From a virus: 17,799 nt of DNA. Below are positions 11,251 through 14,368 of the stretch, in pieces. Within the stretch, counting starts at the first letter, position 1, and each line of letters opens with the position of its first letter. Under the pieces are notes generated by a model. The model was not told the DNA's origin. It ran no database searches and worked only from the letters and a program-made list of their open reading frames with translations. The position numbers were made by a program, and so were the translations under genes. The stretch lies in the UHGV virus genome UHGV-1847153, one strand, 5' to 3'.

Positions 11251-12312
11251 ATGTCTCTTAACTGGATGCGCCATTTTGAGCTGCAACTGTTGGACCAGAA
11301 CGGGCAGGGCGTTTCCCTGTCTGACTTTAAGGTCACGTTCCAGATCGAGTGGGCAGACACACGCTGGCCGCGCGTGGCGAACGTGAAAATTTACAACCTT
11401 TCGACCGATACCACGAACAAGATACTGGGGCAGGAGTTTGCAAAAATTCGCATCATTGCCGGGTATGACGGTATTGCGCCGGATGTTGATGCGAGCCAGG
11501 TTGGTGTCGCCCGGGAGATTTCACCAGACCAGGTAGGGCAGGTGAACGGTCAGAACTACGGCCTGATATTTGACGGTGATATTCGCTTCACCGTCACCGG
11601 GAAGGACAACATTACGGATTCCTGGGTGCTGATTCAGGCCATCAGTAACCACGAAGCGTTCCTCTACGCGACTACCATCACCACGCTTGCCGCTGGCTAT
11701 ACCGTTGCGGATCTGCACCGGGCGACGATGCAGGATTTCAACGCGTTCGGCGTGACGCAGGGCATTACCGGCGACTTTCCTGATACTGTGTTTCCTCGTG
11801 GCCGCGCGATTTACTCATCCACCCGTAACGTGATGGACAATATTGCTGCGCAGTGCAAAGCGACATGGCAGTTAGTGGATGGGCAGGTGCAGATGGTGCC
11901 GGAGGATAAATACATTCACGAAGCCATCGTGCTGAATGCCGATACTGGCCTGATCGGTATGCCGCAACAAACGATGGGCGGCGGAGTAAACGTGCGGTGC
12001 CTGATAAACCCAAACATCCGTATTAATGGTCTTATCCAGCTCGATCAGGCTTCGGTGTACCGCGCCGCGCTCGGCAATAGCGAAATCGCACAGTCGCCCG
12101 GGCGTATCACCGAAACAGAAGAGAACGGCAACCGTGTGCTGACCGGCACGACGTCACAGGCTGCCAGCATTGCGACGGATGGCGTTTATATCGTCAAAGC
12201 TATCGACTATACTGGCGACACCAGAGGTCAGGCGTGGTACATGGATTTGATGTGTTTTGCGCGTGGCAGCCGCGATTTGCAGAGTAACGCATCACTTAAC
12301 CGGACGTTTTAA
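11251..12312 (+). CDS. Putative baseplate hub-like protein (Mu gpP position)
   Basis: RBS AGGAG 11241-11245 before ATG 11251. 353 aa. Position between tape-measure-proximal genes and the spike gene. Identity by synteny only. Confidence 0.45.
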   Translation: MSLNWMRHFELQLLDQNGQGVSLSDFKVTFQIEWADTRWPRVANVKIYNLSTDTTNKILGQEFAKIRIIAGYDGIAPDVDASQVGVAREISPDQVGQVNGQNYGLIFDGDIRFTVTGKDNITDSWVLIQAISNHEAFLYATTITTLAAGYTVADLHRATMQDFNAFGVTQGITGDFPDTVFPRGRAIYSSTRNVMDNIAAQCKATWQLVDGQVQMVPEDKYIHEAIVLNADTGLIGMPQQTMGGGVNVRCLINPNIRINGLIQLDQASVYRAALGNSEIAQSPGRITETEENGNRVLTGTTSQAASIATDGVYIVKAIDYTGDTRGQAWYMDLMCFARGSRDLQSNASLNRTF

Positions 12313-12315
12313 AAA

Positions 12316-12666
12316 ATGAAAAAACTCATCCTGATGATTGCTTGCAGCTCTTTTGTCTTGGCGGGCGTGGCTCATGCTGATTCCCAGTGTGGGCCTTTCC
12401 ACTTGGGCACGAGCCCGACAAATGATGGATGGGCACGCATTAACGGTGCGAAGCCTGAAAGTCAGAAGGTAACGTTCCTTAAGCAAAAAGAAGACTACGA
12501 GAACATTAAGATGGAATGGCGCATGGCTACTGACCAGCCTGGAAGATGGGTTGGTCTTGAGTACATCAAGCGCAACGGCAAAGCCATTCTCAACGCACAG
12601 TGGTTGCAAGCCAGCATGGATGCGCCGCGTCAGTATGCAACATACGACTGCGTGAAGGTGAAATGA
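12316..12666 (+). CDS. Small secreted (periplasmic) protein of unknown function; cargo (moron) gene
   Basis: N-terminal Sec signal peptide MKKLILMIACSSFVLAGVAHA with AxA cleavage motif (AHA/DS). Mature protein about 95 aa with two Cys (QCGPF..., ...YDCVKVK). Lower GC than the flanking structural genes by eye. No recognisable family. Confidence 0.55.
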   Translation: MKKLILMIACSSFVLAGVAHADSQCGPFHLGTSPTNDGWARINGAKPESQKVTFLKQKEDYENIKMEWRMATDQPGRWVGLEYIKRNGKAILNAQWLQASMDAPRQYATYDCVKVK

Positions 12667-12684
12667 TGATCCGCATCCTTAAAC

Positions 12685-12738
12685 ATCAATAATCGTTGAT
12701 CTCGCGTTTTTATTATGCACTAATCTGTACATGTACAG
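12685..12738 (+). promoter_or_regulatory. Candidate promoter/operator of the TA cassette: -10-like TATTAT (12711-12716) and 14-bp perfect palindrome CTGTACATGTACAG (12725-12738) directly upstream of the antitoxin RBS
   Basis: One of only two sizeable intergenic gaps in the window (12667-12748). Palindrome read directly. -35 element is weak or unclear, so promoter placement is tentative. Confidence 0.35.
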
Positions 12739-12748
12739 AGAGGGTGCC

Positions 12749-13162
12749 ATGAAAATCATTACTTACACGCAAATGCGATCGGATTTATCTGCAACGCTGG
12801 ACTGTTTACGCTCTGGTGAAAGCGTCACAGTTACGCAGCGCGGAAAGCCCGACCTTGTCATCAGTGCAAAATCAGTTGATGAAATCGCTTCCGCAGATGA
12901 GGTAAAAACATCTGCGAAAACAATAGACACGCATCTTGCGCAATTAATTGCATCGAATTTGTCACCACAGATAACGGAGGGTGTCATGAAGCTTACTAAG
13001 CAATTGGATGCCCTTCTTCAGTCTGATGAGGCTCGCCAGACTATGATGAAGGCCACTAATGCAGCAGTTGCTTTGCAGGGCGTGTCTGAGTCATTTATCA
13101 AAGCTCTGCAACATACTCAGACCAAGCATGCGGACATCATAAAAAAACTGGAAGATAAGTAA
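12749..13162 (+). CDS. Phd/YefM-like antitoxin with an unusually long C-terminal extension (137 aa)
   Basis: RBS GAGGG 12740-12744 before ATG 12749. N-terminus (MKIITYTQMRSDLSATLDCLRSGESVTVTQRGKPDLVISAKSVDE) resembles the Phd/YefM fold pattern recalled from P1 Phd. Stop TAA overlaps the doc ATG (TAATG) at 13160-13164. Internal in-frame GGAGGG-ATG at 12976-12988. Confidence 0.6.
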   Translation: MKIITYTQMRSDLSATLDCLRSGESVTVTQRGKPDLVISAKSVDEIASADEVKTSAKTIDTHLAQLIASNLSPQITEGVMKLTKQLDALLQSDEARQTMMKATNAAVALQGVSESFIKALQHTQTKHADIIKKLEDK

Positions 13163-13569
13163 TGACTGAGATTACATTCCTTTCGGTAGATGAGGTCATC
13201 GCTATTCAGAAGAGCACATTGCCAAATAGCGGACAACCAGACCGGGGAAAACTCGAAGGTGCCCTCAATCGCGTCGATAACTTACGCATGTATGAAGGAT
13301 GTGAGGATTTATTTAAATTTGCAGCTATGTACATGGTTGCGATAGCGAAGTCTCACGCTTTTAATGACGCCAATAAGCGAACGGCTTTCCAGGCCGCCAG
13401 CGTGTTTTTGCTTTTGAATGGCTATGAACTGAATACCTCAATGGAGTTAGTCAAGCTGACCATCTTTGCTGCTACGGGAGAGGCCGACTGCGATAACACT
13501 GCTTTGGCGCTTAAACTTTTGTCAGATTATAAGAATGAGCTGCTGGCAGATACGATAACTGGCTACTGA
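13162..13569 (+). CDS. doc: Doc (death-on-curing) family toxin, Fic fold
   Basis: Intact Doc signature HxFxDANKR (SHAFNDANKRTAF, codons 13354-13380). Overall pattern closely resembles P1 Doc as recalled (DLF..A.Y.VA.A..H.FNDANKRTA....FL..NG...........L...ATGE). 135 aa. Translationally coupled to the upstream antitoxin. Confidence 0.8.
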   Translation: MTEITFLSVDEVIAIQKSTLPNSGQPDRGKLEGALNRVDNLRMYEGCEDLFKFAAMYMVAIAKSHAFNDANKRTAFQAASVFLLLNGYELNTSMELVKLTIFAATGEADCDNTALALKLLSDYKNELLADTITGY

Positions 13570-13592
13570 TAGCAAAAAGTAAATTGTACACA

Positions 13593-13617
13593 ACCCGCCG
13601 CCGAGCGGGTTTTTTTA
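13593..13617 (+). terminator. Rho-independent terminator after doc: stem ACCCGC / GCGGGT with 6-nt loop, followed by T7
   Basis: Stem 13593-13598 pairs with 13605-13610; T-run 13610-13616. Lies 24 nt after the doc stop and 11 nt before the spike gene ATG. Confidence 0.6.
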
Positions 13618-13627
13618 TGGAGTTTTT

Positions 13628-14368
13628 ATGCCAATTCCAACTCAATCACAGATCGGCGGCGAGCAGCAGACCGCGCAGGCCATAGCCGATTCGGTGTCTA
13701 CCCAGATGCGCGTAGCGATGCCAGGCATCATTCAGTCGTTCGATCCTGACGCTGTAACCTGCACAGTAGAAGTGGCGCTTCGCGGTATTGTTGGCGACGG
13801 CTCCACCGAATTAAAACCGCTGGTGGATGTTCCTGTCATCTTCCCGCGCGGCGGCGGCTGCACGCTGACCTTTCCGGTTAAAGAAGGCGACGAGTGCCTG
13901 CTGCTCTTTGCCGACCGTTGCATCGATTTCTGGTGGCAGAGCGGCGGCGTGCAGGAGACCGTCGACCCGCGCCAGCATGACTTATCTGATGCGTTCGCCA
14001 TCGTTGGCCCACAGTCGCAAGCACGGAAAATCAGCGGTATCAGTACCAGCGCCGCGCAGCTGCGAACCGATGATGGTGCGGCGTTTGTAGAAGTCGCCGC
14101 AGGACATAACATCACCATTAAAACACCGGGCCAGCTTACAGCTACGGCTGAAGGTGGAACGACAATCACATCCCCGACTATCACGCTGAACGGCAACGTA
14201 ACGATTAATGGCAACTTGTCTCAGGGAATGGGCGAAAGCGGCGGTACTGCGACGATGCTTGGGCCGGTGACGGTAACGAATGACGTAACAGCTTCTGGTA
14301 TCAGTGTCGCCACGCATAAACATGGCGGAGTACAGACTGGCGGGGGAACTACCGGAGGGCCGCAATAA
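13628..14368 (+). CDS. Baseplate central spike protein (gpV / Mu gp45-like)
   Basis: RBS GGAG 13619-13622 before ATG 13628. N-terminal OB-fold-like region, Gly/Thr-rich beta-helix-like C-terminus (TITLNGNVTINGNL...) ending in an HxH apex motif (ATHKHGG) as in metal-binding spike tips. Followed by W/J/I-like genes. Confidence 0.65.
   Translation: MPIPTQSQIGGEQQTAQAIADSVSTQMRVAMPGIIQSFDPDAVTCTVEVALRGIVGDGSTELKPLVDVPVIFPRGGGCTLTFPVKEGDECLLLFADRCIDFWWQSGGVQETVDPRQHDLSDAFAIVGPQSQARKISGISTSAAQLRTDDGAAFVEVAAGHNITIKTPGQLTATAEGGTTITSPTITLNGNVTINGNLSQGMGESGGTATMLGPVTVTNDVTASGISVATHKHGGVQTGGGTTGGPQ

Follow-up and report, generated by a model that had tools for sequence, protein, structure and literature searches.

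Does the palindrome lying upstream of the toxin-antitoxin cassette in the virus genome UHGV-1847153 serve as the operator through which this cassette controls its own expression? The question was addressed in a 17,799-nucleotide (nt) stretch of the genome, hereafter called the window, whose positions are numbered 5′ to 3′ along one strand. The window carries a Phd-Doc-type cassette, in which a gene for a 137–amino acid antitoxin (12749–13162, plus strand) is followed by a gene for a 135–amino acid Doc-type toxin (13162–13569, plus strand). Our analysis argues that the palindrome is the autoregulatory operator of this cassette, bound by its own antitoxin; we assign this reading a probability of roughly 0.8. 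The initial annotation had offered the same interpretation, and it is now supported because the palindrome core is invariant in 21 of 21 homologous loci, co-occurs with the DNA-binding domain of the antitoxin and is lost together with it, is absent from a divergent relative (L150), and contains the GTAC/TGTACA core known to be bound by YefM and P1 Phd.

The palindrome and its 12-bp core

The initial annotation described a perfect 14-mer, CTGTACATGTACAG, at 12725–12738, upstream of the antitoxin ATG. The 14-mer is present at this position, and the palindrome ends 11 nt before the ATG (12749), as described. Its length needs revision: 14 base pairs (bp) are perfectly palindromic, but the true extent is 16 bp (TCTGTACATGTACAGA, 12724–12739, no strand assigned), and the part under selection is the inner 12 bp. 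This core, TGTACATGTACA (12726–12737, no strand assigned), is composed of two abutting self-complementary TGTACA hexamers (12726–12731 and 12732–12737). Center to center, the two GTAC sequences are separated by 6 bp (GTAC-N2-GTAC), both in the window and in each of the 21 relatives considered below.

About one palindrome of this kind per window had been expected by chance, and this estimate holds. In first-order Markov simulations based on the dinucleotide statistics of the window, perfect palindromes of at least 14 bp occurred 1.32 times per window on average and those of at least 16 bp 0.35 times, with 29% of simulated windows containing at least one of the latter. The actual window contains a single palindrome of at least 14 bp, TCTGTACATGTACAGA alone. 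Since ~1.3 are expected, the existence of the palindrome is by itself not significant; its significance comes from conservation.

The core is invariant among homologous cassettes

Relatives of the cassette were retrieved by protein similarity only, not by the motif, from E. coli genomes, 68 protein-database homologs, GTDB (one genome per species), JGI/ENA metagenomes, IMG/VR, and contigs encoding selected distant homologs. After removal of duplicates and with the window excluded, 21 distinct loci encoding an intact full-length antitoxin were available; identity of their antitoxins to that of the window ranges from 85% down to ~33 to 37%. The core TGTACATGTACA is identical in all 21 loci, at 7 to 17 nt from the start codon. 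The conservation check proposed in the initial annotation was thus carried out, and the core of the palindrome was retained throughout.

Information content peaks at exactly the 12 core columns and is near zero over most of the remaining upstream sequence; the flanks of the core cannot be aligned between lineages. The perfect palindrome extends over 16 bp in most relatives, 20 bp in L131 and L108, 18 bp in a pseudogene remnant (L009), and 12 to 14 bp in the rest. Position ±7 is mostly C/G, with A/G, C/A, and, in L159, a compensatory T/A also found, and palindromy has been lengthened in independent lineages by different bases (ATC..GAT and ATTC..GAAT). Overall, the core is under strong purifying selection. 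The contexts of the cassettes differ and include the baseplate slot, the antiterminator region of a prophage in Serratia (L131), and a chromosomal location beside a GntR/aminotransferase gene (L137), whose upstream sequence is shared by Morganella L005. Judged from these loci, the site follows the cassette and not the neighboring genes.

A motif-first search was also made. The exact 14-mer CTGTACATGTACAG was found in 115 IMG/VR contigs, and in 11 of them a member of the antitoxin family, which is a rare one, starts 6 to 15 nt downstream; other open reading frames (ORFs) downstream of the 14-mer are not Phd/YefM. With only 11 of the 115 contigs belonging to the antitoxin family, the 14-mer alone was rejected as a diagnostic of the family. 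As a separate observation, the 14-mer precedes, by 9 nt, a recurrent ORF of ~125 amino acids (MADQIILNGLKD…EVWAMEQSLYF) in L026, L040, L066, L018, L063, L044, L100, L056, and L103. This ORF has a weak, sub-threshold match to PD-(D/E)XK nucleases and is unrelated to Phd/YefM.

The site is lost together with the DNA-binding domain or its contact residues

Several cassettes from Xenorhabdus combine an intact Doc with a 56–amino acid antitoxin that corresponds to the C-terminal module only. Two of them, L010 and L011, have neither the palindrome nor the 12-mer. In L012, L013, L014, and L162, the homologous promoter (…GCTAATCTGTACA…) is kept and the site reads CTGTACAcaTACAG, its second box having decayed to CATACA. 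The most divergent full-length member, L150 (33% identity; 1201–1952), has Asp6-Asp7 for Tyr6-Thr7 and no 12-mer; the motif of its Doc is HAFHDGNKR. Because the site is lost or decayed in the domain-less Xenorhabdus cassettes and absent in L150, it tracks the antitoxin's N-terminal domain and the contact residues of this domain.

L150 also contains three TTGTGC repeats with a 10-bp period (1085–1114), including GTGCAC, ~90 to 115 nt upstream; these could be an alternative operator. Another locus, L009, is a pseudogene remnant on a Pantoea plasmid (3001–3020), in which the Tyr6 codon is replaced by a TAA stop and no doc gene is present. The remnant retains an 18-bp perfect palindrome, ATCTGTACATGTACAGAT (2968–2985). 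We consider it uninformative and not contrary.

The antitoxin N terminus is predicted to have a Phd/YefM fold

The antitoxin consists of a Phd/YefM-type DNA-binding domain in residues 1 to 40, a variable and probably disordered linker, and a conserved C-terminal helical module ending in ...HTQTKHADIIKKLEDK. When the family profile was compared with the Protein Data Bank (PDB), the best solved relative was P1 Phd (E = 8e-5, residues 1 to 52), to which the N terminus of the window antitoxin is 36% identical over 45 amino acids. In the AlphaFold2 model, residues 2 to 39 form β1-α1-α2-β2-β3 with a predicted local distance difference test score (pLDDT) of 82 to 89; beyond this fold, the model is disordered at residues 44 to 59 and continues with lower-confidence helices and a better-defined last helix. 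In Foldseek, P1 Phd provided the top PDB matches, among them the complexes with its operator (4ZM2 and 4ZM0), and YefM chains were matched as well; the isolated DNA-binding domain 4ZLX aligned at 1.7 Å over 38 columns. A relative of the window antitoxin, L006, passes the curated family cut-off with 37.2 bits. Residues M1, K2, Y6, T7, Q8, R10, L13, and S14 are invariant in the family. Overall, the N terminus is predicted to adopt the Phd/YefM fold, with contact residues Tyr6, Thr7, and Arg10 invariant.

Predicted promoter, ribosome-binding site, and start codon

The promoter was modeled from conserved blocks together with a simple approximate position-weight matrix based on frequencies from published compilations. 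A −35-like hexamer, TTGATC (12696–12701, plus strand; TTGCTC-like in relatives), is predicted from both. In the main clade, the −35-like block "cATTGCTc" is located at a constant distance from the palindrome, and a TATG(C)GCTAATC block adjoining the palindrome is conserved across relatives. The matrix scan of the window yielded two tied best models, TTGATC-17-(TGc)ACTAAT and TTGATC-19-TAATCT. The −10 region inferred from them (12716–12726, plus strand) begins with TG at 12716–12717, followed by either ACTAAT (12719–12724, 17-nt spacer) or TAATCT (12721–12726, 19-nt spacer). TAATCT shares its last T with the proposed operator core, which begins at this base. In most lineages, too, TAnnCT scores best as the −10, with its last base coinciding with the initial T of the 12-mer, and it often has a TGn upstream (L006, L008, L135, L133, and L052; also visible in L157 and L159).

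A different −10 element, TATTAT, was named in the initial annotation. It is present at 12711–12716 (plus strand), but is the less likely candidate: it lies 9 nt from the TTGATC block, has no good −35 element at 16 to 18 nt, and is outside the three best promoter models for the window, and the earlier assignment is probably wrong. Because proper −35 spacing is kept across lineages, the true −10 is probably ACTAAT or TAATCT (12719–12726), overlapping the left edge of the palindrome. With the preferred models, transcription is predicted to begin at ~12731–12733, inside the palindrome; with the TATTAT model, the predicted start is ~12723, a short distance upstream. In either case, RNA polymerase would be hindered by a protein bound at the palindrome. 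The palindrome certainly ends 11 nt before the ATG; its overlap with the −10 and start site depends on promoter elements that are predicted.

The palindrome is followed by the Shine-Dalgarno sequence of the antitoxin gene, GAGGG (12740–12744, plus strand), read from the sequence; in most relatives, a purine-rich GAG(A/G)GG stands after the palindrome. An in-frame ATG (12731–12733) within the CATG at the center of the palindrome would extend the antitoxin to a 143–amino acid ORF, which is listed among the ORFs of the window and annotated in some database records (P0002 and P0017). This start was rejected since the spacer between core and ATG (7 to 17 nt in relatives) does not keep the reading frame and position 1 of the Pfam Phd/YefM profile aligns with the Met at 12749. 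The 143–amino acid ORF is therefore an annotation artifact, the real start being at 12749.

Alternative explanations

Could the palindrome be a site for another host or phage regulator, such as a LexA-like SOS repressor or a prophage repressor? The LexA box of E. coli is CTGT-N8-ACAG (16-bp CTG-N10-CAG) with an AT-rich, variable interior; its outer C/G are essential for LexA, and several toxin-antitoxin loci are SOS-regulated. The outer CTGT...ACAG of the palindrome resembles the arms of this box, and the cassette is located inside a prophage late operon. However, the arms in the window are separated by N6 (CTGT-N6-ACAG), which is two bases too few, and selection acts on the inner 12-mer, while the interior of a LexA box is variable. 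The outer C/G pair is, moreover, broken in L005, L006, L008, L135, L148, and L157 and is T/A in L159. With both the spacing and the pattern of conservation wrong, a LexA box was rejected. As to regulators in general, the site accompanies the cassette into unrelated contexts and genera and vanishes when the antitoxin's own DNA-binding domain is missing, and we regard control by a foreign regulator as very improbable. A further possibility is that the conserved bases simply represent a core promoter (−10, discriminator, and start), or a chance palindrome inherited with the cassette and devoid of a regulatory role. One palindrome of at least 14 bp is indeed expected per window, the left flank overlaps the predicted −10, and the cassettes are horizontally mobile, with copies that are 98 to 100% identical, so some of the similarity reflects recent common descent. 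Yet promoter elements are never conserved at 12 of 12 positions across lineages whose proteins are 33 to 50% identical and whose −35 and spacer are randomized, and for each independent lineage, a given 12-mer has a probability of ~2e-6 of occurring within 40 nt of upstream sequence. The core also decays exactly where the DNA-binding domain has been lost, with the surrounding promoter retained (L012 to L014). There is little chance that this explanation is right.

The palindrome might instead act as RNA, forming a hairpin in the 5′ untranslated region that tunes mRNA stability or translation of the antitoxin. When region 12715–12775 was folded, a 6-bp stem with a CAUG loop did form on the palindrome, within a structure of −12.8 kcal/mol, but this fold is ordinary (z = −1.3), 18 of 200 shuffled sequences folding at least as well. 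None of the 12 core bases varies, not even the four in the predicted loop, and no compensatory stem changes are seen in the core over the 21 loci, which is the signature of sequence-specific recognition by a protein. In addition, the predicted transcription start lies within or beside the palindrome, such that the full hairpin may go untranscribed, and the 6-bp stem leaves the Shine-Dalgarno sequence free. With a fold no better than that of shuffled sequences and no covariation in the core, the hairpin was rejected; it seems scarcely credible as the reason for conservation.

Several points weigh against the palindrome being the antitoxin operator. The 21 loci amount to ~8 to 9 clearly independent lineages, many loci coming from one clade. 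A stricter, standard sigma-70 scan of 12200–13800 found no promoter, and the promoter register in the window is ambiguous under the models described above. The match of PF02604 (Phd/YefM) to antitoxin residues 1 to 38 (E = 1.4e-6, 28.5 bits) is just below the cut-off of 29.8, as is that of TIGR01552 (20.2, cut-off 20.8), and the two profiles cover residues 1 to 42 only. Just ~40 residues of the canonical Phd/YefM domain are present, the region of helix α3 being without a confident model. Last, the proposed window operator does not have the canonical two-box spacing of 12 to 13 bp; its 6-bp spacing is without precedent among characterized Phd/YefM operators, so their binding mode is not simply transferable. 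In YefM-YoeB, altered box spacing disrupts cooperative binding (review PMC3920265).

Other palindromic and TGTACA sequences

Over 90 nt of upstream sequence in the window, neither a second 12-mer nor a further TGTACA was found. Two other copies of TGTACA, at 13328–13333 (inside doc, within Met-Tyr-Met codons) and 13585–13590 (before the terminator), were considered as auxiliary operators and rejected as unconserved: at these sites, relatives often have TAT for Tyr or a different downstream sequence. Both copies are probably due to chance. The Morganella-type loci L005 and L137 carry, besides the 12-mer, an extra TGTACA (GTGTGTACAAAA) ahead of the predicted −35, ~76 nt before the antitoxin ATG, and this copy may be an auxiliary site. 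A 12-bp perfect palindrome of another sequence, GCAATTAATTGC (12940–12951), falls within the part of the antitoxin gene that encodes the variable linker; a weak terminator-like hairpin predicted for the minus strand (12942–12928) overlaps with it.

A putative internal start at Met80

Codon 80 of the antitoxin gene is an in-frame ATG preceded by a Shine-Dalgarno-like sequence (GGAGGG-N4-ATG, 12976–12988, plus strand; GGAGGG at 12976–12981 and ATG at 12986–12988). The arrangement resembles that of the main start (GAGGGTGCCATG versus GAGGGTGTCATG). GGAGGG is kept in nine of nine members of the EG[V/I/A]M clade; around it, the preceding residue is T, K, R, or M, with the codon always ending in G, and neighboring wobble bases vary. 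The stand-alone 56–amino acid antitoxins of Xenorhabdus begin at the residue equivalent to Met80. Initiation at Met80 may yield a 58–amino acid, neutralizer-only antitoxin lacking the DNA-binding domain.

The cassette and its surroundings

The toxin matches Pfam Fic/DOC (PF02661) with E = 1.5e-11 and TIGR01550 DOC_P1 with 81.3 bits (cut-off 38.65). It is 41% identical to P1 Doc, with HxFNDANKRT conserved; the motif in the window is HAFNDANKR, in agreement with the HxFx(D/N)(A/G)NKR of the Doc subfamily of Fic proteins. The gene order is that of Phd-Doc, and the toxin start overlaps the antitoxin stop (TAATG). The cassette is closed by a strong intrinsic terminator (13592–13619 or, in a shorter delimitation, 13592–13611, plus strand) with a 7-bp stem containing five GC pairs, followed by a T-run.

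The operon is set in the myovirus baseplate module of a prophage late operon. Genes for the plug, the hub, and a 116–amino acid secreted ORF are located upstream, and those for the gpV spike, a sheath-initiator-like protein, and gpJ downstream. In E. coli genomes, the same slot is occupied by this cassette (98 to 99% identity), by an 82%-identical version, or by unrelated cargo. Homology to the 82%-identical cassette spans from ~12690 to ~13619, which indicates that promoter, operator, both genes, and terminator move as one unit. The possibility that the palindrome is a recombination or boundary site of the mobile cassette was rejected since homology begins 35 nt upstream and the palindrome is internal to the unit. 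The unrelated cargo in the slot of closely related E. coli prophages encodes a 210–amino acid hypothetical protein or a DUF4236 protein (cf. L003, 1868–2677). The 116–amino acid ORF (12316–12666) has a signal peptide–like N terminus (MKKLILMIACSSFVLAGVAHA) and no match in Pfam or NCBIfam; related prophages, whether or not they carry the toxin-antitoxin cassette, have an ORF of similar size (102 to 117 amino acids) in the same place.

Discussion

If the palindrome is the operator of the cassette, as we propose, we infer binding, repression, the transcription start, a corepressor role of Doc, and stoichiometry along the following lines. Antitoxin dimers, through their N-terminal Phd/YefM domain, would recognize the GTAC cores of the abutting TGTACA boxes, with Arg10 contacting the guanines and residues 6 and 7 the flanking thymines, as in YefM. 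With the site overlapping the end of the −10 and the predicted start, antitoxin bound there would stand in the way of RNA polymerase, and the operon would be autorepressed. A complex with Doc would probably bind more tightly than the antitoxin alone; judging from P1 and YefM-YoeB, Doc on the C-terminal module probably modulates affinity. A separation of 6 bp between boxes corresponds to a helical rotation of ~206° and a rise of ~20 Å. If two dimers bound at once, they would therefore have to approach from roughly opposite sides of the DNA; the alternative is a single dimer that can take one of two registers. Speculatively, bridging around the helix might be allowed by the unusually long linker that separates the DNA-binding domain from the Doc-binding module. 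A more far-reaching scheme joins such a new geometry (two dimers on opposite faces, or a tetramer formed via the linker or Doc) with the Met80 isoform, so that the ratio of repressor-competent to neutralizer-only antitoxin, and not only that of toxin to antitoxin, sets expression. We regard this scheme as unlikely.

Should the operator assignment be true, TGTACATGTACA provides a clean, sequence-defined operator for a widespread enterobacterial prophage-borne Phd-Doc family. The GTAC-reading chemistry of the Phd/YefM domain would then be usable at a spacing of 6 bp as well as at the canonical 12 to 13 bp. This would bear on conditional cooperativity, in which the toxin bridges antitoxin dimers on DNA, for sites on opposite helix faces. 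The core hexamer is also that of the host yefM-yoeB operator, raising the possibility of regulatory cross-talk between the prophage cassette and the chromosomal toxin-antitoxin system. In practical terms, the 12-mer would be a good guide for annotating start codons and promoters in the family, in which the 143–amino acid annotations start too early.

Operators with a TGTACA core are textbook knowledge for Phd/YefM antitoxins; abutting boxes, invariant across a prophage-borne Phd-Doc family with an atypical 137–amino acid antitoxin, were not found in the searchable literature. A search for TGTACATGTACA returned unrelated primers and sequences only, and a search for prophage baseplate Doc cassettes returned nothing specific.

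The closest known operators belong to the yefM-yoeB/axe-txe systems of E. coli, E. faecium, and S. aureus. E. coli YefM footprints on two TGTACA-core palindromes that are 12 bp apart (center to center) and overlap the −10 (PMC1802561), and paired TGTACA boxes are common upstream of yefM homologs (PMC1802561 and PMC7730913). In the crystal structure of the S. aureus YoeB-YefM-DNA complex, each YefM dimer docks in one major groove on one TTGTACA box, where Arg10 reads the GTAC guanines and Tyr6/Ser7 touch the flanking thymines; operators are summarized there as GTAC-N8-GTAC for YefM and N9 for Phd (PMC7544224). The window shares with these systems the identical core hexamer, a palindrome over the −10/start region (predicted here) just upstream of the antitoxin gene, and a cognate antitoxin with a Phd/YefM N-terminal domain and conserved Tyr6, Ser/Thr7, and Arg10. 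In yefM-yoeB/axe-txe, one box is strengthened by extra palindromic flanks (PMC1802561, PMC7730913, and PMC7544224), and the longer palindromes of some relatives of the window cassette recall the extended "L" palindrome of yefM-yoeB. In contrast, the boxes of yefM-yoeB/axe-txe are 12 bp apart, with dimers in adjacent major grooves on one face, whereas those of the window abut, at 6 bp. Their toxin, YoeB, has the RelE/ParE fold, while the window toxin is Doc, and the 137–amino acid window antitoxin differs in its long linker and its C-terminal module. The chromosomal Phd-Doc system of E. faecalis is similar to the window in having a Doc-family module whose antitoxin recognizes one compact perfect palindrome near the −10 in place of two separated sites; it differs in the antitoxin, which has an AbrB/MazE-like β-sheet domain, compared to the predicted β-α-α-β-β of the window antitoxin, and in its palindrome, which is a different one of 10 bp (PMC13034048).

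In P1 phd-doc, the toxin belongs to the same family (41% identity to P1 Doc) and the N-terminal fold of the antitoxin is the same (36% identity). The P1 sequence upstream of phd, read directly, is TATAAT-T-GTGTACAC-ATAAC-GAGTACAC-GAGGTG-…ATG, so the two loci also share GTAC cores, the order of −10 (predicted in the window), operator, ribosome-binding site, and ATG, and residence in a phage genome. The P1 operator has two adjacent palindromic Phd sites and shows conditional cooperativity with Doc. Its sites, GTGTACAC and GAGTACAC, are 13 bp apart (center to center), unlike the TGTACA boxes of the window, which are 6 bp apart. Phd has 73 amino acids and a short disordered Doc-binding tail, while the window antitoxin has a linker of ~40 amino acids and a C-terminal module of ~58 amino acids, which is found as an antitoxin on its own as well. 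In P1, Doc bridges two Phd dimers on one face, a mode that cannot be presumed when the boxes are separated by half a helical turn. Fur and DtxR/IdeR occupy overlapping hexamer repeats from opposite DNA faces. Their geometry is like that needed for two dimers on TGTACATGTACA, ~half a helical turn apart; with folds and biology unrelated to those of Phd/YefM, the analogy shows only that such binding is physically possible. Seen against these systems, the operator proposed here would refine a known mechanism and not overturn current understanding.

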